A stretch of 64,000 bases of DNA from a virus (Duplodnaviria > Caudoviricetes), in IMG/VR virus record IMGVR_UViG_3300037722_000745, positions 160,001 to 224,000 of that record. One strand, given 5' to 3'. Shown piece after piece: positions 7,903-63,850 of this stretch. Every line of letters begins with the position of its first letter. Position 1 is the first letter of the stretch. A program made the position numbers and the translations under genes. Under the pieces are notes generated by a model. The model did no database searches. It saw only the letters and a list, made by a program, of their open reading frames with translations, and had not been told where the DNA came from.

Positions 7903-10900
7903 CTAGAAACGCGGATCCTGGGCCTCTTCCTCCGGCTTACGCTGCAGCTTGAGGGTCTCAATGATCTTCTCGGCAACGTTCGTCTGCTCCACGATCTCTT
8001 GAGCCACCGTGCTGTAGATAGCCCGTAACACCTCGTTGAACAGAGCATCGTTTACAGTGAACAGATCCTTCTCCAGCTTAACCCGCGTGTCATCTGCATC
8101 GATGTTGAACATCTCCAAAATGAGACTGATGTCGATCGAACCCTTGTTGTAGAGGTTGAACAAGGCATCGTACGTGTCCTGAGAGTCCCTAAGAGGAAGT
8201 CGCGTGAACGACAACCTGGGGTACAGCACAACTTCCTCACCCCACGCGTTCTTCTCGACAAAGCCTTTCCGACGGGAGACCGGTTCAAATAGGTAGCGTT
8301 CAACATACTCTTGAACCATCTCACGAAGGAAGAGGTACCGAGTGTTGATCACCTCCAACTTAAGACGATCACCTGAATAGAGAGTCTCCCCAGACAGCAA
8401 ACTCTCCGTGACCCCCAAGCCAGCGTAGAGTTGTTTATCCGTGATCTCATACTCACTCGACAGATCAAGCAAGCGATCTCTGGCTCCCATTTCCTCCCAT
8501 CGAACCTCATAGTTGGTCACGATAGAGTAGTCTGGGTCGACCAAAGCAAGGTCCACTTGCTCCCTCAAGTCCATAACGTCAACTTCGGAGATCCGATCAC
8601 CCCAGATGATCCGTTTAGGCGTCATCGCCCGGGAAGCAATCTGAGTCTGCGCTTGCCGTAGCTTCTCCCGATACATGAGAGTTCGGAGGACCCGGTCCAA
8701 GATGCTCTGACCCAATGGTTCTCCGGCCCCTCGACGTCCAGCCATGTAGTAGCAAAAAGAGCCCTCGTCCGGATCTGTCCCCAGAGGAATGAGCTTCCCC
8801 TGCTCCATGTAATCACGAACTTCCGCAGGTAATTCCCTGACCACCATCTCCGCGAATTCATCCCCCGACCTAGCCTGCTCAATCAAAGCCCGATCCTTAT
8901 CGGAGGGGATCAGCTCGATCCTCATTTTGTCGGTGAACGAGTGTGCCGTCGTCGCTTTGACTCGATCAATGGGTATGATTATCAGGCGGTCCCAGCCTTT
9001 GTACTCTTTCTGGTAGTGCCCGAGTTCCTGGTTTTCGCGGTCCTCACGCTCTACAAGGCCGATCTCCGGTTCCTCTTTGGCTTCACCGTCCTCCGTGACG
9101 ATGTATTTAACTCCAACCTGCTTCTGGTCGTAGCCAAGCTCCGCAGGGACGTCTACTTCGGAATCCTCTGCGAAGATAAAACAATTGTGTGTGCTAACAA
9201 AACCAGCCCTGAAAGTGTGGTCGCGGTCTACTTGGAAGTTGTATACGGTCTCATCGGGATAACCTTCCACACCCCTAATCAACAAGGCCACTTGGCCTGC
9301 CACGCGTTTGTAGGAAGTGTGACGCGATACCCATTTGGATTGAGCTAGAAGCCGATCCGCTTTGGTCGCGTACTTACACAACCGACGGCTTTCATCCTCG
9401 TCGTTCACAGTCAGAACGTACGACGGCCCATTCGATTGCACCCGCTGACCATCGATATACGAATCTGAGGCGGGCGGGGCTACACGTAAAGACGGAACAC
9501 TCCCAACACGTAGAAACAGATCTCTGATGTGGTAGATGAGCCCTTCGGACACCATACTCAGTTGCACCACAGAGTTAGTTGTCGTCCCAACTGACACGCA
9601 ACCGTCTGAGTCGATCAACCCCGCAACTAAATGCAACTGCTTGTCTGCTGGCAACTGCATGACCCAATTGGGGATACGTTTCGGATTGGGGCCTTTCGAC
9701 GTGCACCCGAATTGAGAAGCCCACCACTCCACAAAAGCAGGATTATGAGTCACAGCCAGAGACACACACTCTCGGTCGGTTCTCTCATAAACTCTCTCTG
9801 AGCCAAACCACTGATCTAGGATCCAACGGACACGTTCCCTGTGCGTGTTCGACTCAGACCCAAAACATACGGACCAGACACCGCGGCCCCACGAGGAGCG
9901 ACTTGTATCACGAGTCAAAGTCCCATCCCCCAGCCAATACCCCAGTAGGTAAAGGAAATCAGCGTCGACAGGAAGTTCTCGCGGAGCTTGGAAACGGTAG
10001 TCTCGGTTGATCTCGTAGTACCAACTATTTTCCTCGCCCGACCAGAGAGGCAGCCAAAGTGTGTGGTCTCCGTGTTTAGGACCGGTCGCAACCCTGCGGC
10101 GGAAGGGGTACGGAAGTTCCTGATCAAGGGTCAAGATGACATTGTGGAGCGTGTAAAGAGGGACCCCGAGTTCTTCCGCTATAGACGCTCGGGATCGCCT
10201 AACCGGTTCTTGTAGAGAGCACAACCACGACAACAAACCCAACCGAGCCCTGGCCGCGTTCTCAGATCGGGGTCTGACCTGAGTTCGAGTTACTCTGTAC
10301 CCACCGTCACAAGGTTCCACGAACGCGGGTAATGGATCCAATAGGGACACCTCGGACACGTCGGCTTCACCTACAGGCCACGTAGCTCGAACGAAATCCC
10401 CTTCTCTAAGGTCTCCAGTTTCAATGAACTCAAACCGATCACCTCGAACCACCTCGATGGGATGTTCTCTTGTCAAGTTCAAGCGACCAGGAAGTCGTGC
10501 GATGTCAAGGCTAAGGATATCCTCGCCCGCTCGTTGTTGGACGGCTTCAACCGTTCGCCAGCGCCCTGTGTGTGTTAAAACCTGATCCCCAAGCCCTATC
10601 TCATCCGCCCTCCGCTCTCCGCTGGGAGTAGAGATCAGCGTCTCACCCGTCACGCACCCGCCGTCCAACCAGTAGTGGTGGACCATGGTGACTAAGCGTT
10701 GGAACAGCTTGATCTTGTCACACATGCGAGTGAAAAACCAAAGGATGTAGTTGGCGTAGTCGTGGGTGTCCTTAAAACGTTCCGGATGCGTTTGAGGCTT
10801 TGGAGTCGCCAACCGGACCTTGGACAATGGCAGTTCTGTGTGGAGGTCGATCGACTGACCTACGATCGGATCTGTGTTGTAGAAGTGGCGATAGATCTCC

Positions 10901-11181: not shown

Positions 11182-11654
11182 TCACCTATAGACAGATCCT
11201 GTCCATACAAATCTATCAAGGATTCCATTGGGCTCCGCTGAACTGCCTTGCTCTGAGCCTCTTTTTGAGCCTTCCGCTCACGCCTTTGCCTCATGAGCAT
11301 CTCTCCCTCTTTTTCAGCTTCTATGAGAGAGATGCGCTCCAAAATACGAGACGATCGACTAGCCCGCATTGAGATCTGATCGATCGACCCAGCGAACCTG
11401 GTCATCACGTTAGCGTAGGTTAGATAGATCGCCGTGGTGTCATCTGACGTGGATCTGCGGGTCCTTTGTACTATCCCCGCAGCTAAGAGATGTATCCGCT
11501 TCCCACGGTCGCGGATCTCTTCCTGCAATCGAGAAATCTCCGTGACCGTGCTAGCCACCGGAGTGAGATCGAACGGTCCGTTTTCAGCACTCACAATGTC
11601 GCCTGGATCCCTAGAAAGAACTGATTGACTGTTTGTGGGGTCTGCGTCACCCAC
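11178..11654 (-). CDS. Hypothetical helical protein
   Basis: 158 aa ORF overlapping the portal start. Confidence 0.6.
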   Translation of the reverse strand: MGDADPTNSQSVLSRDPGDIVSAENGPFDLTPVASTVTEISRLQEEIRDRGKRIHLLAAGIVQRTRRSTSDDTTAIYLTYANVMTRFAGSIDQISMRASRSSRILERISLIEAEKEGEMLMRQRRERKAQKEAQSKAVQRSPMESLIDLYGQDLSIGE

Positions 11655-31442: not shown

Positions 31443-32592
31443 ACTCCCTCAAAGCCTCGTCTGCATCCCGTTCAGCCGCAGACAATTCACCCTCCAATCG
31501 ATTCACAATTTGAAGCATTCTCAGTAAGCACTGCTCCCAAGCCGAAAGACGGCCGTACTTACTTTCAGCTGCTCCCAACGGATCCAACGCTGGAGCTTCA
31601 ACGTCCTGAGACTTCTGCATCCGTTCAAAAAATGCCTTCAGGAATCTCAGTCTCATGGACCATGCCGCCAAGGTCCGGTACTTCTCTTCCAACAGCGTAG
31701 AGCTAGCTGGAGAAGGAACGGCTATCTCCTCCACCTTAGACAGGGCTTCCACACCTCGGGTTTTCCCTGCCAACGCCTCAGCAAAAGACCTAAGAGACAG
31801 GTATGTCTCCCCACTGCTCTGTAGAGCGGAGATCTCTGGGACCTCTACACTCTCAACCGAAGACAGGTCTTTCACACACTTAGCGACGCTCAACAGAATC
31901 CCTAAGTACCGATCCAGACGTTCTACTTCTACCTCTGCTTCATAAGCTTGGCGCCCCAAATCTTCAACGCTACCAACCCTGGACACAACCTCGTCAAGTC
32001 CTTCATACGTCTCCAATGAGATCCTAAGATCCCGAACGTCCTGCTCTCTGACTTTCCGTAGAGAAGCGGTGCTCTTTCGGTCCTTCTCGACCAAACGCAT
32101 GGCGGTGTTGATTTGGTCCAGCTTAGCCACATCGGACAGGACGTCCGCTACCACAGTACCCGATTGATCCAAGATGAAAATTGGATGGAACTGGTCAGAT
32201 ACTTGAAGGACCTCCTTGTTGGTGCCCAACTTAACCGGACCGAAGGCGCTCTCTAGGAACTCCGGAGTACCTCTACCGGCCACTGTGTACTCGGAGCCAT
32301 TGAACACGTACCGATTGACAGAGTCCCCCTTCTCCCAAAGCAGATCAAAATCCTTGGCCTGGATGTGCACCGAACAGAAGCACTGACACGACTTGTTACC
32401 CTTCAACGCTCGTGGGCAATCCTGCTTGTGTCTAACACAGGGATCCGCAGGAGGACCTGTCAACGCCGCCTTGATGGCCCTAACCACCGCACTCTTACCG
32501 ATATTGGACTTCCCAACGACGGTAGAAAAACCATCGATCTCCACGACCTGATGGTCGATGGACTGGAAGTCTTTGATCTCTACACGGACCAT
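31378..32592 (-). CDS. SbcC/Rad50-like ABC ATPase, N-terminal half ending at the Zn hook
   Basis: IKDFQSI, Walker A GKSNIGKS, Q-loop, coiled coil, terminal CPTC. Confidence 0.82.
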   Translation of the reverse strand: MVRVEIKDFQSIDHQVVEIDGFSTVVGKSNIGKSAVVRAIKAALTGPPADPCVRHKQDCPRALKGNKSCQCFCSVHIQAKDFDLLWEKGDSVNRYVFNGSEYTVAGRGTPEFLESAFGPVKLGTNKEVLQVSDQFHPIFILDQSGTVVADVLSDVAKLDQINTAMRLVEKDRKSTASLRKVREQDVRDLRISLETYEGLDEVVSRVGSVEDLGRQAYEAEVEVERLDRYLGILLSVAKCVKDLSSVESVEVPEISALQSSGETYLSLRSFAEALAGKTRGVEALSKVEEIAVPSPASSTLLEEKYRTLAAWSMRLRFLKAFFERMQKSQDVEAPALDPLGAAESKYGRLSAWEQCLLRMLQIVNRLEGELSAAERDADEALREFGVLGVCPTCNRALYEAHEHV

Positions 32593-33887
32593 CAGGCTTC
32601 CGAAGCGGCCTCACCACTGGAAGAAGCCTCATCTTCTCCCTCACTGAGGGCCTCCGTCACTTCATCTTCGAGTCCTTCTAGGTCATCATCCACACTGTCG
32701 CCCTCGAGATCATATCCCTCCAACAACTCATCTTCCTCTTCCAACTCAATGGGCCCATCCACTGCGGAGGCGTTCACGGCTTGGACCAACTTGTCCCTCA
32801 GAGCCGTGTAGATCTTGTGGTTCTCCACTAGAAAGGCACGAAATTTTTCCTTGCCTTGAAAGCGGTGTTCCCCGATAGAGTAATAAGCCCCCTCTTTCTT
32901 GATCAACTTCTGGGCCACCCCTGTTTCAATCAGAGAGAAATGGTCGTCTATACCAGCTCCGTAGCGGATGAACACCTGCGCCGAATGCCCTTGCTTGGCA
33001 TCGATCTTAGACTTGACGACCTTGACGTCCGTCACATTCCCGTAAGGGAAGCGGCGCTTCCTGCCCGTCATCGGATCCTTGCGCTCGATGAACTCGGACT
33101 TGATGCGCTGCATCCGCAGCCGCAGGTAGGCGTAGAACTTCAGCGCCTTGCCGCCACTCGTGGTTTCGTTGTCACGCCCCGAACCTCCGATAAGCGCTCG
33201 AGTCTGGTTGACGAACACTAAGGTCGTACCTGGATGCGTAGGGTCTGGCTTCTCCTTGTTGTTGGGGTCCTTCGGGAACTTGAGAAGCCACATGGCGAAC
33301 TTGGGCAGCGCTCTCGAAAATTGACGAGCGACACCGCCAATAGCCGCCTCATCATCGAAGCCCTTGTCCAGCTCCTTTTTGGGCACCATAGCCGCAACTG
33401 AGTCGACTCCTATGATGTCAAAGCCAGCTGCCACGCCAACGAACATCATCTTGAAACCCTCCTCCATAGAGTCAGGTTGGTAGACAAGGAGCTTGTCCTC
33501 CTCGTAAGAAAGACCCAACGCCTTAGCGTAGGAATGGTCCAACGCGTGTTCATAGTCGATGAACATCGCTGCACCGCCGGCCTTCTGAGCTTGCACCATG
33601 GCTGAGATCAGCATGGTTGTCTTACCACTCGACTCGGGCCCATAGACTTCGATGATGCGACGACGAGGGAAACCTGGACAGATAGGGTTCTTACCGTCTC
33701 TCGACAAACTACCCCCGATCAGCATGTCCGTAGAAAACGATCCCGTCGACACAAAGGGAATCGTTGTAGCAGTAGGCTCCAGAGGCTTCTGTTTTGTGGA
33801 TTTCTGGATCGCAGATCGTGCCTTGGCGACCATTGCAGCTCGCGCTTCAGCTACGGGATTAACCGGTTCCTTCTTACGTGGTGGCAT
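32592..33887 (-). CDS. recA: RecA recombinase
   Basis: GPESSGKTT, FIDYEHALD, DSVAAMVP, FVNQTR, TSGGKALKFYA; acidic tail. Confidence 0.95.
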   Translation of the reverse strand: MPPRKKEPVNPVAEARAAMVAKARSAIQKSTKQKPLEPTATTIPFVSTGSFSTDMLIGGSLSRDGKNPICPGFPRRRIIEVYGPESSGKTTMLISAMVQAQKAGGAAMFIDYEHALDHSYAKALGLSYEEDKLLVYQPDSMEEGFKMMFVGVAAGFDIIGVDSVAAMVPKKELDKGFDDEAAIGGVARQFSRALPKFAMWLLKFPKDPNNKEKPDPTHPGTTLVFVNQTRALIGGSGRDNETTSGGKALKFYAYLRLRMQRIKSEFIERKDPMTGRKRRFPYGNVTDVKVVKSKIDAKQGHSAQVFIRYGAGIDDHFSLIETGVAQKLIKKEGAYYSIGEHRFQGKEKFRAFLVENHKIYTALRDKLVQAVNASAVDGPIELEEEDELLEGYDLEGDSVDDDLEGLEDEVTEALSEGEDEASSSGEAASEA

Positions 33888-34545
33888 GTCTCAACGCCTC
33901 ATGTCTGGGGAGAATTGAAAAGCGGAAGAACCGCTGGTTTTCCTTGAAAATAGCTCCTCTGTAGACGGTCTGACCCGACCTCTTGCCTTTCGTGAAGGTG
34001 TGGATCTTGGCGAAAGCTCGAAGCTCCGCAGGAGTCAAATCTGCTTCAGTCAGCTCCCCACGAAGGAACATCCAAAAACGAGCGGTGAACTTAGCGACGT
34101 GGTACCCATCAGCCTCGTCAGAACTCCACTTAGCGATCCCGGTCTCCGCCTTGGCTGCGGAAATCATGTCCGACTTGAACATCTTGCCTTTGCGGAGCTT
34201 GGGATCCTCTTTGACCATCATCTTGACCGTGCTCGGATCGAAGTACACCACGTCCTTGCGGCGGCTCCAGAGAGCTTCGTTGACCACCAGAAACAAGGCG
34301 TAGAGTCCTTCACTGAACAGTTCTCCATACGGCGGGGATTCGACCCCCACAGCCTCGATGAGCGGGTAGTGGTCCAACAACTCCACGAGCCACTGTCGGA
34401 GCAAAACGTAGCGCTCCACCCAAATCGTCTTGGAGGTCGTGGACCACCGCCCTCGAGCAACAACACGAGCGTGGTCCACGACCGACGAATTGTGAATCAG
34501 CCAGCCAAAACCTGTGAGAGAAGGATCCAGTCCTAGCGTGAACAC
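33874..34545 (-). CDS. ruvC: RuvC-like Holliday junction resolvase
   Basis: (M)FTLGLDPSLTGFG, GVESP, SDEADG. Probable GTG start at 34545; the ORF-track extension to 34572 lies inside a CRISPR repeat. Confidence 0.8.
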   Translation of the reverse strand: MFTLGLDPSLTGFGWLIHNSSVVDHARVVARGRWSTTSKTIWVERYVLLRQWLVELLDHYPLIEAVGVESPPYGELFSEGLYALFLVVNEALWSRRKDVVYFDPSTVKMMVKEDPKLRKGKMFKSDMISAAKAETGIAKWSSDEADGYHVAKFTARFWMFLRGELTEADLTPAELRAFAKIHTFTKGKRSGQTVYRGAIFKENQRFFRFSILPRHEALRHATT

Positions 34546-34553
34546 AGTTGAGC

Positions 34554-34659
34554 GTCTCGCCGCAGCGAGCAATCAGGATCGATTCCCAGAGGGCGTCAGC
34601 GAGACGCAACTCGGGTCTTCTGGGTCTCGCCTCAGCGAGCAATCAGGATCGGTTGCCAA
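34554..34659 (-). CRISPR. Orphan Cas12j-type mini-array (repeat-34 nt spacer-repeat)
   Basis: 36-bp repeats at 34624-34659 (32/36 identical) and 34554-34589 (34/36 identical) to the main array repeat; hairpin CTCGC/GCGAG intact in both. Confidence 0.93.
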
Positions 34660-34670
34660 CACTGTTTGGC

Positions 34671-35559
34671 TCACACCTGATCCAGCAGGTCGTGCAAGTT
34701 GTCCGCCGAGACGTCCTCTGCCGCAGATCCGCCAAGACCCAATTTGGCCTTGAGTTGGTCGGTGGTCACCTCCCGGAACGGAATCAGCTTGTCGTACAGG
34801 TTGATAGCCTGTCGGAGGACGGCTTGCCTGAGCTGGTCGTTCTTGAGCCAGACCGCAGGCCCGGTAAAACTCACGCTGATGTTCTGGTATTGAGGCTCTT
34901 TGCACTCCAGCTTGATGTCTTGAGAAGCCAGAGCCATGCCGTTTTCACGAAGACTGTCGTTGACCTTCCAGATGTCTTCGTAAATCCGGTTGCTGAAGCG
35001 CCACGGAAGTATGTCGAGCTTGCCCTTTTTGATCTGATCAGCGAGGGCTTCCTTGTTGATGATCTTGCCCTCGCTATCCGTCGGATAGATCAGCAACAAC
35101 GTGGTGAAGTAGGTCTTCACCTCAGGCAGCCTCTTCCAGACAGCGTCGGCCTCCGCCCCGTCTTTCCCCAACCGAGACAGCACAAACCCTAGCCCCTCCT
35201 GGTAGTGCGCCTTCATGACCTTGAAATGCGCCGTGCCGATATCGAGCTTCTCAATGCCAGTCAGCTCGTCAACGCTCTTGTCCAGGCTCTCCGCCTGCTT
35301 CTTAAGAGCGGTCGAGGCCACCTGCTTGATCTCCTCTCGGCTCAGCTTCTGATCTTTCTTCTTCGCTTCTTTGACAGCTTGGCGAACGGTATTCGCGTCT
35401 ACCGTGTGGAAATAGACAAACGCGCACCGAATCGTCTGGCCTTTTTTCGTCAGCTTAAGCCAATCGTTCGACTGTCCTCCGACGTTCTTCTCGTCGGGGG
35501 CAAGAGAAACTTCACCCTCAAAGTCATACTCTTCTGGAATATCGATATTATCACTCATC
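34671..35559 (-). CDS. Putative single-stranded DNA-binding protein (T4 gp32-like)
   Basis: WLKL..G..R, aromatic-rich OB-like core, acidic C-terminal tail ending DLLDQV; upstream of ruvC/recA. Probable start ATG 35559. Confidence 0.55.
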
Positions 35560-35632
35560 TTATGCCTCAATGTTTGGTCGCCCCAACCACTGAGTCCGTT
35601 AGACAAGGAGGTTGAGATACGACGTATCAGGT

Positions 35633-35749: not shown

Positions 35750-35757
35750 CTACACCA
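35750..35757 (-). promoter_or_regulatory. GGTGTAG motif (putative phage promoter) upstream of the ssb operon
   Basis: TGGTGTAG in intergenic DNA; overlapped by the inverted repeat GCGGGTCT/AGACCCGC (35720-35750). Confidence 0.5.
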
Positions 35758-42951: not shown

Positions 42952-45900
42952 TCACTAGCGGATGGTCGTGTTTGATCCCAGAGAACATCTCCTGAAACTG
43001 CGATTCCGAGATCTCTTCGTACGGAGCTTGAGCATAGCCGTGGGCTTTCGCCAACAAGCTCGTGGATTTAAACCGAGGCACGTACTTCGCCAGCAGCTCC
43101 GCCGTGCGCTCCCTTTCGGTCTCGGGATTGAACGAGAGCGTAGCGGAGACAGAATTGTCCGCCCACCACTCCTGGATCAACGCCTGCCGCTCGAATTGGT
43201 CGTCAATCGTCTCAGTCTGCACAGTCACCCGCGTGTGGACCGCCTTGGTCGGGAACGAGAACACAAGCGTGTGCCCGGTCTGGTCGTAAACATCGTACTC
43301 CCACGCAACCCCAGCCTCTTGTAGCGCTCTAGTCATAGGCTCATTGACGGCCAACCGAGCCCGACGGATGTAGTACGGGGCGAAAGGTGCGTGAATGCCA
43401 GGGCTGCTGGAGTTGAGCAGGCTGATCGTCCCAGAAGGCTTGGTCGTCGTGACCGCGTTCGGGCGGGCTACCCCCAGCTCATCGGCGTAGGAGTTGGCCT
43501 CCAGCCGGCACACCTCGAACCAACGAGCGAGCTGAGGTCCGACCCAGTCGAAATCACAGATGCCACCGAGTCCGACGCCCAAACGCATGTTCTTGCGACG
43601 CACCTCGTCCGACTCCTCATCCAGCAACGGAGTCAGACGCTGGCGCAGACAATAACGGGTGAGCAGGCGGAACACAGTGCCTGGATCGGTCGAACCGTCG
43701 AATTGCGCCGGAAATGCTTCTGCTAGGTTACAAGCTTCTCGATTGTGCAAGGGAATTTCGCCGCATTGTCGCACACTTACGCCTGAAAACCAGAATTTGT
43801 CTAGATTTTTGTGCTCCTTCGTTATTACAGACACAGTGTGGTTTTCGTCCACCGTGAGGTTGTAGACCGTGTGCTCTCCTTCCAGCTCCTCCACACGCGC
43901 AACCTTGTGGTTGTAATCGGACGCAGCTTCCAAGACCTCCGAGAACTTCTTGAAGCCGTGCTTGAGTGTCGGCCCGATACGGGAAGGCACCCCTTCCCCT
44001 TTGCAAGCCAAGGACCATTCCTTGCGATTCGGGTGGCGTCCTAGCCTGAAAGCCAGATCAGAACAAACACGAGCCTGCTCCACTTTGGTCGCGACCTGCT
44101 TGGACCCGTAGTGCGTGTCCATCGCCTGAAGCCGTTTCGCTTTGACCTTCGCGTCACTGTTGATATAGGCGTTGCCACAAGCTTCTGAGCAAAAGGATCG
44201 CTCACGATAGGAATGCTCCACCTCAAACGAGGCCGAACACCCTTCACAAGACTTGACCACAAAGACCTTGGAGTCTTTGATGAAAGCTTCGTACCCTTGT
44301 TCCAACATGGAGCAGAGCGTTTTGATGACACGTGGATCGGTGTCGACGTGCTCCAAGCCAAGCTCCGAAGCACATTGCTTGGCTAGCTCCACAACAGACT
44401 TCCAGGATCGATAGCCAGAGAAGGCTTGCGGGATACCCTGTGCCGAGGCGTACTCCAGCCAATCCTTCTTGCTGAATCGGCGTCCCAATTTACGAGTCAA
44501 CGTCAGACCATGATCCTTCAACTCACCACAGGTCAAACCTGACCAACGACCATTCGCCTCGCCAGAGTTGTCTTTCTCTCCGTGCAACTTGGCGTGATCA
44601 CGAAAAGTCATGATCTGGAGGTTATCAGGAGCGTTGTTCAGCTGATCGTAGTCCTTATGGTGGACTACAAGGCCGCCAGTGTTCGCGAACCCGTTCTCCG
44701 CACATACCGAATAGACCCGATCCCAGCCATCCGGGTCCTGGAAACAAGCAATCAAGCGATGCTCAAATATCTTGTCTCGATCCGGGTGACGCGTGTTGCA
44801 GTAAATACGATAATAGTCCTTACCTCCCTTCTTAACCTTCTCCAGAGCCTTCTTGAAACGCGGCAAACTGTCCCCAGGTTGGAGATCTTTCGCCTCTACT
44901 GGAGTACCATCACGTAGCAAGAAACCGTGGTTCGGCGTGGTGTCTAGGTGACTACCATCATCCAACCACACCCGGACAAGCTTTTGGTTGTAGCCTGTGA
45001 TCCGGGGGTTACGACCCATCTTGATCTCGATCTTGCCGGTCTCCTTGTTCAGGGAGTAAACCGGCACGTCCTCGCCCTCCTCCGCGAGCTGGCGGATCGA
45101 GACAGAATTGCGACCGTCTGCCACGGCGATCTTCGTGTCTCCAGAAAAACACGGATTGATGACGGTGGCCCCAGGATCGGTCTTGCGGATGAGCGCCAGG
45201 TTCAGCAGACCGGGCTCCCCGTAGAGGATGTTGTCCTCGACCATCCCATGCCAATCGAACTCGGCAATCTGCTTGTCTGTGTAAAACAGCAGCGAGTTGT
45301 TGCTGGTGTGCCGATGAGACTTCACAGCTTCGAAGTCCTTCTTCGCGTCCCGGAAAGGCCGATCCTCCGCGTCGCCCAAAACGATCAAGGCTGACCGGCG
45401 GACATTACCGGACTTCACACAGAACCCGATCAAGTTGGTGATATCGAGGCACTCAACGCTCGTCAAGCCGCGTCCCACCGCTCCACGCACGATGTCCCAC
45501 GAAAACCTCAGCAGCATCGACAGCGGGCCCGGACCGCACGCAACACCTCCAAACGTACGAATAGGCTCGCCCCGAGGGCGGATGTCCGAAAGGTCTACGA
45601 TGATATCCCGACCTTCGAAAGCCGCCTGGAGAACGAGACGCAAGGACTCTACCCACCCCTCACGTGAGTCAGGGATCTGGTGGACCGGGGTCTGACCGTT
45701 CAGGAACTCTTTGTCATTGGGCCCCACATCCTCAACGTTAGGATGATCATGGCGGCACCACACCGCCATGCGTGAGGAACCTGATCCTGCACTGACCTTT
45801 CCCAGCAAGCCGAGGGATCCCAATCCCACCCCGACGCCTCCGCCCAACATCAACTGGTTCATCACCCAACACCAGTCGTCGATCGAGCGGAGCGTGACTC

Positions 45901-57704: not shown

Positions 57705-58179
57705 GTCTCGCCGCAGCGAGCAATCAGGATCGGTCCCCAGCGGCTGATTCCTGCCGGAGGCAGTCACGCCTACTCCGCGTCTCGCCGCAGCGAGCAATCA
57801 GGATCGGTCCCCAGCTGATCATCACGATTCAGCTGCCGGCATCCGCTTCAAGTCTCGCCGCAGCGAGCAATCAGGATCGGTCCCCAGGACGTCCTCGAGA
57901 TCAACGGCAACGAGTACGACGCGAGGTCTCGCCGCAGCGAGCAATCAGGATCGGTCCCCAGCTACGGCGTCCGACGTGATGAGCGTGGCCGCGAGAACGT
58001 CTCGCCGCAGCGAGCAATCAGGATCGGTCCCCAGCAGCGTGCGAGCTGCGGATCGGTGGCTGCAGCCTTGTGTCTCGCCGCAGCGAGCAATCAGGATCGG
58101 TCCCCAGCTGCAAAAACTGGACTTCGCGTTATATGCCGTCCTCGTCTCGCCGCAGCGAGCAATCAGGATCGGTCCCCAG
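57705..58179 (-). CRISPR. Cas12j CRISPR array: 7 identical 36-bp repeats, 6 spacers (36-38 bp)
   Basis: Repeat CTGGGGACCGATCCTGATTGCTCGCTGCGGCGAGAC at + starts 57705, 57779, 57852, 57926, 57999, 58072, 58144; the ATTG-hairpin-AC 3' end is typical of CasPhi repeats. Confidence 0.98.
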
Positions 58180-58307: not shown

Positions 58308-60464
58308 TCACTCAGCCGCGAGAGACTCCAGGGGGGTAGACGCCACTGAGGCTCTCGCGGCTTTCCGGAGGGATACACCAGTGATGGCTACCATCGCGAT
58401 ATTATAGGCAGCCACATCGATGTCCGCGTTCCCACGGTACCCGCAACAAACACATATGAAAGCTTCACGATTGACTCGGTCTCGATTGGCCTTGTCACAG
58501 TGCCCGCACTCGGGGCACGTCCGTGATGTATTATACGGATCCACTTTGATCACCCGATAGCCTCGGTGCACAGCCAAGTCGCAGAACGCTCCGAAGAGAG
58601 CGTCCATGAGCCACCGCCCTTCCTGTTTGGCTGCGAAGAAACCACCCCACCCTGACTTACGGCTCCCCTTCCCGCCTCTACGGAAGCTGTGATGAAGGTC
58701 CTCGACCGCTACGATGACCTTTCCGCACTGAGCCCGCTTCTCGGCTGTCCTAATGACGTAGTTGACGCAGTGTCGCGACAACTCCTTCTTGCGGATGGAT
58801 AGCTGGTGGTACTTCGAGCTGTTCCTTTCAGCCTCCCATTTGGCTTCGTTCAGTGCCTTGCGGGTCTCGGATGTCAGTTGAGGCCGAAAATGCTGAGCCC
58901 AGTTCACGTCCCATCTCTTGCGAATCTCGGTCTTCCGCTTTTTCCCTTTACCCTTGAAGAAGGGGAACATGTAGAGCGTGTCGTCCACACCACGTTCCTT
59001 CGCCAAGTCAGATAGAATAGAGCTTCGACTGTTCACCTTGTCCCAGGGTACTTCATCCACCGATAGCCCGAGATGGCCACACACCTGCATCTTGGCTTGC
59101 TCTGGTCCGAAGGTATCCAACGCCAACACCTCCGCTTGTTGTTCGGCGGTCAGAGAGCGTACGGCTGCTAACCGCAAATTCTCTTGGTGCTTGTCATACG
59201 CCTTACGAAACCGGAAGAAGTCCTCTACAGTCTGCTCCGGTAACGTAAAAGCCTGCAACCGTTCTACGCACTTCCCTGGACGAATCCGTAGCGCATTCGC
59301 AGCGATCAAGTTGTTGACGCCTAGATCGACACCTACGAGGCTAAACGTCTCCGTGGTGTCATCTAGCATCTTCGACACATAGGATCCCTTCACAACCTTG
59401 GCCTTGACGACCGGCACGACCCCTTGCTTATAGATCAACGTGGCGGTGTAACGTACCGGCTTGCCCGGCTTCTTCACTACACTCAACGTGGGGTCATTCG
59501 TCACCAGATTCAGAAGACTCTCAATCGTCACCGGCACCGATCGGTCTAACAATTTGCGGTACTGTGTGTTGCGGAGAAGCCCTCGGAGATCGAGAAGTGC
59601 CCAGTCATCAGCTACCCTAACGACCGCCAACAACATGTTGTCGTCGATCGCCCCACCACGTGAGCGTGCCCAAGAAGCCCGTTTCCGACGGTGCTTCTTA
59701 ACGGAAAGATTTTCTCGATCCCATGGGGGTACATACCCCGGTTGACCTTCAGGTATCTCTAGCCGATCTACACCACAAGCGGCGATGGGTGTTGACGGAT
59801 CTCGGCTATAACCCGTCACCCCAGGAATGGACCCAGGCACATAGGGCTTCAACTTCATATGCTGGTACCCAAACACGCTACAGTTGATCCCCGGGCGGTG
59901 CCGCAGATGACCTGTCTCATCGAGGGCCGTTTCAGGTTCGTCGAGTGTTAGAAGAGGTAGGCCACGTTCTGCCCGATGCTCGTTCCGCTGTTCAATCTTT
60001 GCTACCTTTTTGCTGTTGCGATTCTCAACCTTCTTGAGAACCCCCTCGTAGGTGGCCCGAGCGTTTTGGAAAATCAGGTTGAGACCTTGGACATTGAAGT
60101 ACCCGTCCGTGTCCACCCGCGTAGCCTTAAGCCAGGCCCTAAGCCCTGCTTCAGACTTCCCAGGATCCGTAGCCTTGAACTCCTCGTAACTCTGAGCATA
60201 GACGTACTTCTGGATCACCACCGACGCTTTGTAGATCGGCCACTCCTCCAAAGGCCGACTCATCGCCACGATGTTACACTTCACCGGAGGTTTGAAATTA
60301 GGCTGTGTTGTGCCCCCCTTTCCTTCAAGAAAGGCCACAGCAGCGCCTTCGCCTTTCGACTTGAGGATCCTACCAGCCTGCCTCGAGTCATGTTTTTTGA
60401 ACCGCAGCCCAGGGAAGGACTTCTTACAGAGGGCGACGAGTGGGGTTTCCTTTTTGTCTGGCAC
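58308..60464 (-). CDS. cas12j: Cas12j (CasPhi) type V effector, 718 aa
   Basis: CasPhi-like N-terminus (FKPPVKCNIV..SRPLEEWP, VQGLNLIF.NA..YEGVL, DRLEIPEGQPGYVP), RuvC VGVDLG, VAVEDL, TSRTCPECG..CVCCG..ADIDVAA; adjacent array; no cas1/cas2. Confidence 0.95.
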   Translation of the reverse strand: MPDKKETPLVALCKKSFPGLRFKKHDSRQAGRILKSKGEGAAVAFLEGKGGTTQPNFKPPVKCNIVAMSRPLEEWPIYKASVVIQKYVYAQSYEEFKATDPGKSEAGLRAWLKATRVDTDGYFNVQGLNLIFQNARATYEGVLKKVENRNSKKVAKIEQRNEHRAERGLPLLTLDEPETALDETGHLRHRPGINCSVFGYQHMKLKPYVPGSIPGVTGYSRDPSTPIAACGVDRLEIPEGQPGYVPPWDRENLSVKKHRRKRASWARSRGGAIDDNMLLAVVRVADDWALLDLRGLLRNTQYRKLLDRSVPVTIESLLNLVTNDPTLSVVKKPGKPVRYTATLIYKQGVVPVVKAKVVKGSYVSKMLDDTTETFSLVGVDLGVNNLIAANALRIRPGKCVERLQAFTLPEQTVEDFFRFRKAYDKHQENLRLAAVRSLTAEQQAEVLALDTFGPEQAKMQVCGHLGLSVDEVPWDKVNSRSSILSDLAKERGVDDTLYMFPFFKGKGKKRKTEIRKRWDVNWAQHFRPQLTSETRKALNEAKWEAERNSSKYHQLSIRKKELSRHCVNYVIRTAEKRAQCGKVIVAVEDLHHSFRRGGKGSRKSGWGGFFAAKQEGRWLMDALFGAFCDLAVHRGYRVIKVDPYNTSRTCPECGHCDKANRDRVNREAFICVCCGYRGNADIDVAAYNIAMVAITGVSLRKAARASVASTPLESLAAE

Positions 60465-60473
60465 CCGGAGGCC

Positions 60474-60481
60474 CTACACCA
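60474..60481 (-). promoter_or_regulatory. GGTGTAG motif 9 nt upstream of cas12j GTG
   Basis: TGATTGGTGTAGGGCCTCCGGGTG; no Shine-Dalgarno. Confidence 0.55.
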
Positions 60482-63727: not shown

Positions 63728-63850
63728 AACAACCGTAGTTGCAGAATTCACACGGTTTCTCAGAATCCACCCCTGAGGGAGGTGAAAGCCTCCCTCGTAA
63801 TTGAAACACCACTGAATAGGAATCCGGTGTCAGGTTGTGACGTGGATCGA

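Follow-up and report, generated by a model that had tools for sequence, protein, structure and literature searches.

A degenerate Cas12j mini-array in the leader of a phage ruvC gene and the antisense match of its spacer

Directly upstream of a phage ruvC gene, a spacer-like segment lies between two CRISPR repeats and is complementary to the second repeat and to the nucleotides immediately before the start codon. The question raised by this locus is whether the complementarity is a selected "anti-handle" or a by-product of an element with another role. A sequence-only reading of the DNA had proposed the former in two versions: that the spacer segment makes ruvC translation depend on whether Cas12j is loaded, or that it masks the terminal repeat, which would then go unprocessed and spare the operon mRNA. 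Here we weigh these proposals against the structure of the locus, its predicted folds, its homologs in other phages and the distribution of related repeats.

The mini-array, its neighbors and the Cas12j system of the phage

The window, the whole stretch of 64,000 nt that was analyzed, is part of one 323,174-bp phage contig; coordinates are those of the window unless given as genome positions. A minus-strand gene (58308–60464) encodes a 718-aa Cas12j (CasPhi) protein. Its ORF matched CasPhi-2 in PDB 7lys with an E value of 2e-159 (residues 9–703), PDB 8iew with an E value of 2e-150, and Pfam PF07282 (Cas12f1-like_TNB), so that the Cas12j identity given in the sequence-only reading holds. In being a CasPhi homologue of between 700 and 800 aa with a C-terminal RuvC/TNB region, the protein has the features of a type V-J effector. 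The main array is directly downstream of cas12j on the minus strand (57705–58179) and has seven identical 36-nt repeats and spacers of 36–38 nt. Its repeats have the simple stem-loop and AC end of a type V-J array, and the same GATTGC–stem-loop–AC architecture was observed in three other CasPhi loci, each with a repeat of its own. The CasPhi array of P0002 (L035, 4430–5130) was seen to have one unit in which the repeat is truncated and the spacer very short.

The locus under study reads, on the minus strand, the stop codon of orf311 (34671), repeat Ra (34624–34659), a 34-nt insert that we refer to as the mini-array spacer (34590–34623), repeat Rb (34554–34589), 8 nt, and the GTG of ruvC (34545). 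The 125-nt gap between orf311 and ruvC contains, in other words, two CRISPR handles and a hairpin. Ra has four mismatches to the 36-nt array repeat (32/36 match), three in the 5′ nine nucleotides and one in the loop (TGAG), and Rb has two (34/36 match), both in the 5′ nine nucleotides, which confirms that both repeats match the main array. Because the changes are confined to the 5′ nine bases or the loop, the 19-nt 3′ handle has stayed intact: that of Rb, TTGCTCGCTGCGGCGAGAC, is identical to the main-array handle, and that of Ra is unchanged apart from one loop base. Both copies retain 27–28 nt of the repeat and have in common a derived A at repeat position 6. With two repeats in the same orientation flanking an insert of spacer length, on the minus strand like the main array, the unit is a genuine but degenerate two-repeat Cas12j mini-array within a run of same-strand genes.

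The upstream gene, orf311 (311 aa; 34671–35606, minus strand), has Pam3_Gp34/DUF5895-like features based on language-model look-alikes (score 0.91), and no match to it was found in Pfam or PHROG. Its true start is likely the ATG at 35558; the Atlas record matching it begins at residue 17, and its C-terminus is conserved among relatives. Downstream, ruvC (33874–34545, minus strand) encodes a RuvC-like Holliday-junction resolvase (phrog_159, E 4e-13). In alignments with eight homologs, residue 1 of each coincides with its GTG start, and both the identity and the start codon assigned earlier were therefore retained. A comparison of initiation regions revealed that ruvC has no Shine-Dalgarno sequence, as is the case for most of the neighboring genes. 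The recA gene (32592–33887, minus strand; Pfam RecA 5e-51) overlaps the end of ruvC, and because of this overlap it is probably translationally coupled to ruvC. Rb ends 8 nt before the ruvC start and is on the same strand as orf311, ruvC and recA; no sigma70-like promoter, terminator or Rfam family was found in the orf311–ruvC gap.

Stability, chance level and conservation of the antisense helix

On the minus strand, 34611–34597 is AGTTGCGTCTCGCTG and 34562–34546 is CGGCGAGACGCTCAACT. These segments pair exactly as had been claimed, with 5 bp, a 2-nt bulge (CU, in the 3′ strand) and 10 bp including one U-G pair, for a total of 15 bp. The 5′ strand of the helix (34597–34611) doubles as the 5′ arm and loop of a hairpin, H (34585–34615, minus strand, −15.3 kcal/mol), formed by spacer positions 9–34 and the first 5 nt of Rb. 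The 3′ strand (34546–34562) consists of the last two loop bases of Rb, its 3′ arm (GCGAG), AC, and the 8-nt ruvC leader. Since the helix occupies the 3′ arm of Rb as well as the leader, it excludes the Rb hairpin; the two are indeed mutually exclusive, both using 34554–34562.

Folding of the region indicated that the helix is real, at −19.5 kcal/mol alone and −28.0 kcal/mol when the structure inside its loop is included; the canonical Rb hairpin has −8.8 kcal/mol. In a 156-nt context, the ensemble energy was −55.6 kcal/mol with the canonical hairpins forced and −55.3 kcal/mol with the helix forced, so that these exclusive structures are comparably stable, as the alternative folds of an RNA switch should be. 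The unconstrained minimum free energy (−57.1 kcal/mol) belonged to a third fold, in which the arms of Ra pair with those of Rb, and the helix, the canonical hairpins and the Ra–Rb pairing all lie within about 2 kcal/mol. The probability of the helix was ~0.7 when Ra was left out of the fold, but <0.01 when Ra was present. Stepwise folding of the growing transcript had H forming before the 3′ arm of Rb exists, and H and the Rb hairpin would be the first structures to form during transcription. The stability of H is unexceptional beside that of real spacers. Given the near-equal energies and the early formation of H, the folding model neither excludes nor favors a switch.

The strength of the duplex was compared with that expected by chance. 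The spacer pairs with Rb plus 20 nt at −30.0 kcal/mol (RNAduplex), which was attained by 1.7% of mononucleotide-shuffled spacers and 2.7% of 34-mers sampled from the genome. That a captured spacer would not be expected to show such complementarity is a weak premise, because one genuine main-array spacer pairs almost equally well, at −29.8 kcal/mol against the repeat alone. When the target was narrowed to the 3′ arm plus 12 nt, a choice made post hoc, the duplex (−23.8 kcal/mol) fell in the ~0.2–0.3% tail, and the ruvC site was the outlier among 17 handle sites (next best, −18.6 kcal/mol). Antisense local alignment of the spacer gave p ~0.009. The excess over chance is modest, being suggestive but not compelling, and the narrowed test leaves room for a selected helix. 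We also considered the spacer as a decayed copy of the repeat and rejected this, as the sense similarity has p ~0.11 and accounts for only ~6 of the 15 bp.

Eight loci of huge phages encode RuvC homologs (68–78% identity) and keep the gene order, and in all of these the mini-array is absent. Each has instead a single GC-rich hairpin in a short gap, ending 0–9 nt before the ruvC ATG. The antisense helix was found in none of the eight, and neither conservation nor covariation of the two folds was observed among these loci, which lack the mini-array. No homologous mini-array was detected in viral_contigs or metagenome_contigs, and the collections searched contained no closer relative with this repeat that includes the ruvC locus. 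Of four public runs, two yielded contigs that did not differ from the window and two yielded none, so these runs supplied no strain variants; no RNA run among the public runs contained the ruvC locus. An upstream mask was likewise absent from the 16 other handle sites in the genome and from nine in other phages.

In the closest relative (L001), a degenerate, handle-like hairpin (stem CTCGC/GCGAG, loop TAAG) is 4 nt before the ruvC ATG. Positions 34587–34596, which span the spacer–Rb junction, have a 10-nt identity with this intergenic hairpin (shuffle P ~0.005). On the strength of this identity, the spacer may descend from an ancestral intergenic hairpin; however, the stability of the hairpin is equalled by real spacers, and MAFFT aligns the L001 hairpin with Ra instead.

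Taken together, these data make a selected anti-handle decidedly unlikely. Its attractions are the stable helix, the tail of the narrowed test, the strong structure just before the ruvC start in all relatives, and a structure that reaches position −1 in a setting of genes without Shine-Dalgarno sequences, where structure up to that position would matter for initiation. The unbiased duplex test, the isoenergetic folds, the disappearance of the helix when Ra is present, and its restriction to this one locus and this one handle all count against it, and a selected helix, whether as switch or mask, is not supported. The masking version is further undermined because Cas12j on Ra would hold spacer positions 1–18, such that the mask could not form. 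The 15-bp complementarity is probably incidental, and most likely arose partly from a resemblance of the spacer to the 5′ arm of the repeat, with chance extension providing the rest. If so, GC-rich palindromic repeats readily obtain partners of 10–15 bp in adjacent spacers, and for this reason comparative support is needed before such a match is read as a switch.

Origin of the spacer and handles elsewhere in the genome

The mini-array might also be an ordinary weapon of interviral conflict, in which Ra and the spacer form a crRNA against a related competitor phage and the position before ruvC is accidental, for example through integration or recombination at a pre-existing handle. Viral mini-arrays are mostly aimed at related viruses (PMC11656645), and the handle-like hairpin of L001 at the same place and the derived A common to Ra and Rb are consistent with this explanation. 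However, a protospacer was sought in viral_contigs, genome_contigs and the INPHARED phages (collections without close relatives) by exact scans with spacer nt 1–22 and 12–32 and by blastn against phages, and none was found, and thus no PAM-flanked match in a related virus. A 21-nt match in a Phenylobacterium MAG was rejected as a protospacer as it does not cover the rest of the spacer. In addition, the spacer is short at 34 nt, and the loops of Ra and Rb differ, which argues against a recent simple duplication.

A partial match was present in the phage itself. Spacer positions 12–32 match its own dnaB gene (genome 44239–44259, minus strand) at 19 of 21 nt, without a PAM; the match is in frame and encodes ELRLAD, including one synonymous change. 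Two genuine array spacers also have 15–16-nt matches to the phage's own genome, and such matches are in keeping with a captured spacer. Against this, a 14-nt self-match has p ~0.055, and a relative's dnaB was rejected as the source because the orthologs of six relatives match no better and encode Q where the spacer would encode P. Overall, we consider the interviral explanation unlikely. A relative's dnaB ortholog (L030/L031, G005:C1:69165-71921) was observed to be one 924-aa open frame, with two homologous halves that are ~1.3 kb apart, as expected for an intein insertion.

The first 11 nt of the spacer are identical to genome positions 43029–43039 (minus strand) in the primase gene, where TTC precedes the match. 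The two source-like sites are 1.2 kb apart in adjacent genes, with their order reversed relative to the spacer. A seed match beside a TTC PAM is what would be required if the mini-array guide acted as a crRNA-like regulator, binding a partly matching site in its own genome and repressing it without cutting. Degenerate repeats and a shortened spacer are also features of regulatory mini-arrays (bioRxiv 10.1101/2023.03.03.530964). In our scans, 11-nt seed-plus-PAM self-matches were found for 3 of the 10 non-array guides versus 3.1% per guide in the null, and none of the main-array guides had one longer than 9 nt. The locations of the matches do not fit regulation, however. The primase match is within the coding region, 200 nt from its start; the Rb guide matches the 3′ terminus of a gene, and the remaining match represents tRNA-like paralogy. 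None has the promoter location that, with a seed match of at least 10 bp and a PAM, characterizes crlRNA/CreR targets, and self-regulation of this type was rejected on these grounds. Going by Cas12a, 11 nt is also short for stable Cas12 binding. We regard a crRNA-like regulator as very improbable.

Ten non-array copies of the 19-nt handle were found in the genome (Ra, Rb and eight others), compared with a chance expectation of ~1e-5, and it is the exact sequence that is conserved, as 18 fixed bases and one variable loop base. Solitary copies are on the minus strand at genome positions 11450–11468, 224976, 228545, 235636, 242052, 243439 and 245626, and a variant is on the plus strand at 87499–87517, where a compensatory stem change (CTCAC/GTGAG) keeps the canonical hairpin. 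Six of the solitary handles are in a 43-gene tRNA/tmRNA cluster, on the tRNA strand; the copy at 235636 precedes a VWA-domain gene, and one copy is antisense at the 3′ end of rnhB. As these contexts are mixed, including tRNA spacers and the antisense position at rnhB, one mechanism may not fit all. Exactly 23 nt separate the handle at 242052–242070 (minus strand) from the tRNA-Ser after it at 242028, and an RNase P cut at the tRNA would free a crRNA-sized RNA, like a natural tRNA-guide array.

A second 36-nt repeat family, ending ATTGAAAC, is also dispersed; the rnhB ATG is preceded by a perfect copy at a distance of 9 nt, and a further ATG by a copy at 3 nt. Its solitary copies are at genome positions 10712–10747 (plus strand) and 285970–286005 (minus strand) and at window positions 63772–63807 (plus strand), and its arrays are at genome positions 1–257 and at 61.3, 64.6–65.5 and 120.2–121.2 kb. 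Solitary repeats of both families are on the flanks of rnhB; in another Cas12j phage (L032, 9334–12322), an RNase HII gene overlaps the start of cas12j.

The motif TGGTGTAG is enriched on the gene strand, with 24 minus-strand copies versus ~5 expected, usually 8–20 nt before start codons. This placement suggests a phage promoter element whose transcripts would have very short leaders. One copy is upstream of cas12j (60474–60481, minus strand), and three solitary handles (genome 11450, 242052 and 243439) are 11 nt after the motif. The nearest copy upstream of ruvC is at 35750–35757 on the minus strand, with none between 35757 and ruvC.

Handles in leaders are not unique to this phage. The handle TTGCTCGGTACGCCGAGAC of the CasPhi array of a 529-kb phage (L044/L118) has solitary copies in the 5′ leaders of other huge-phage contigs (L046, L054, L059 [IMGVR_UViG_3300044796_000662]; L045/L051; L049/L056; L058; L050; L043). 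These contigs vary in GC content and some are without Cas12j, and the loop is identical in all. At seven of nine such sites in other phages, the handle is 1–25 nt before the start of an ORF of 94–337 aa. Single matches to the handle patterns in small viral contigs were at chance level. In the relative L009, an intact handle (494–512) is 16 nt before a 94-aa gene, and the 81%-identical ortholog in the phage studied here has only a decayed hairpin (genome 111156–111215, minus strand), which indicates that handles turn over at orthologous leaders. Across these genomes, the recurrent and more robust feature is a Cas12j handle just ahead of a start codon, rather than an antisense helix.

Some of these handles raise the possibility that the hairpins act without the phage's own Cas12j, either as decoys for the Cas12j of a competitor, similar to RNA anti-CRISPRs, or as plain intercistronic or 5′ stabilizers. 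Identical 19-nt handles were found in three records without Cas12j (G007, 76% complete; G010, 85%; G005, 44%). That several phages with the identical handle of another CasPhi lack Cas12j, in records that are 76–85% complete, also counts against the explanation preferred below, because the hairpin might need no Cas12j from the same phage and could serve as a decoy or plain 5′ hairpin. Racrs are solitary units just after promoters (PMC10651486), much like the three copies past TGGTGTAG, and a GC-rich hairpin is present in the orf311–ruvC gap of every relative. Yet the records without Cas12j are incomplete, and decoys in the phage studied here would sequester its own effector, since it encodes the cognate Cas12j. 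Conservation of the exact 19-nt sequence, beyond the fold, argues for a sequence-specific binder, and the 27–28 nt kept by Ra and Rb exceed what a hairpin needs. We consider it quite unlikely that the hairpins of the ruvC unit act in this way.

Candidate roles of the ruvC handle and comparison with known systems

The explanation that we tentatively prefer, at somewhat less than an even chance of being correct, is that Cas12j binds and processes the ruvC leader at Rb and that the antisense match is a by-product. The RuvC site of Cas12j reportedly carries out pre-crRNA processing, with the cut in the region upstream of the repeat, and the protein keeps hold of a guide duplex of 18 bp (PMC12141684); its PAM and processing are also described in PMC9942878. 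CasPhi3 was reported to contact C-1, A-2, G-17 and U-18 (bioRxiv 10.1101/2021.06.27.449965), and the handle core of Ra and Rb includes these positions. In our proposed mechanism, Cas12j would bind Ra and Rb on the polycistronic RNA and cut upstream of each, with the cut site and footprint for this ortholog being extrapolated from CasPhi-1/2/3. Cutting would part orf311 from ruvC–recA and leave a ruvC mRNA that starts with a Cas12j-bound handle. The ruvC GUG would then be at guide positions 9–11, inside the ~18-nt guide segment in Cas12j, and because it would be within the protein-held segment, Cas12j occupancy should set the output of ruvC and of the coupled recA, most likely by blocking initiation while stabilizing the 5′ end.

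The earlier proposal that ruvC is gated by Cas12j is retained in part. With the last repeat only 8 nt from the ruvC start, Cas12j loading would plausibly affect the initiation region, and this part of the proposal is supported; the helix as a selected switch is not. In a broader version, huge phages would use the Cas12j handle for cis-regulation in the leaders of mRNAs and pre-tRNAs, with Cas12j doubling as a post-transcriptional regulator or processing enzyme, and with the spacer at ruvC as an anti-handle that frees Rb only once Cas12j is loaded on Ra. We regard this as a long shot. If it were correct, the anti-handle would couple the output of recombination genes to the state of the phage's CRISPR effector. 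If leader handles are bound or cut by Cas12j, they would represent a natural case of a DNA-targeting type V effector that regulates the mRNAs of its own genome in cis. This would also explain why a phage scatters copies of its repeat among operons and tRNA clusters, and it would bear on how compact CasPhi-based tools for RNA processing are designed.

Viral mini-arrays, Racrs and crRNA-like regulatory mini-arrays are already established, and the ruvC unit has features of each. Virus-borne mini-arrays with one or two spacers serve inter-virus competition (PMC11656645). As in these, two repeats flank one spacer at a distance from the cas genes and match a functional array. The unit differs from them in that its repeats match the phage's own Cas12j system rather than that of the host, in that no related-virus protospacer was found for it in the collections searched, and in its location inside a gene cluster with the last repeat 8 nt before a start codon.

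Racrs mimic host repeats and thereby inhibit host Cas proteins (PMC10651486). The hairpins described here are similarly repeat-derived and dispersed, some are directly past a promoter-like motif, and handles also occur in phages without an effector. In contrast to Racrs, the hairpins share their genome with the gene for the cognate effector. There are two repeats rather than one in the ruvC unit, which matches the phage's own system and for which the 1.1 kb upstream contain no promoter-like motif, and so it was not classed as a Racr.

The crRNA-like regulatory mini-arrays CreA, CreR and crlRNA act in trans on promoter DNA via seed-matched spacers (bioRxiv 10.1101/2023.03.03.530964; 10.1101/2024.10.29.618823); the coverage of the crlRNA survey (bioRxiv 10.1101/2023.03.03.530964) did not extend to type V-J. 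Like these, the ruvC unit combines degenerate repeats with an atypical spacer, and its proposed role is in regulation and not in defense. Unlike these, it has no promoter target, and the action proposed here would be in cis, on the RNA that carries the repeats. Our literature search found no account of Cas12j repeats within phage mRNA leaders.

The mechanism that we prefer is closest to an engineered one. In synthetic designs based on Cas12a or CasPhi, a type V repeat placed in an mRNA reportedly allows the effector to cut or bind the mRNA and alter its fate. We know of no natural example of such processing in a phage operon, and the ruvC leader is proposed here as a natural case. Operons of bacteria and phages also carry intercistronic hairpins that serve as stabilizers or attenuators, and the single GC-rich hairpin in the orf311–ruvC gap of the relatives resembles these. 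What distinguishes the phage studied here is that its 125-nt gap has, besides a hairpin, two CRISPR handles of specific sequence.
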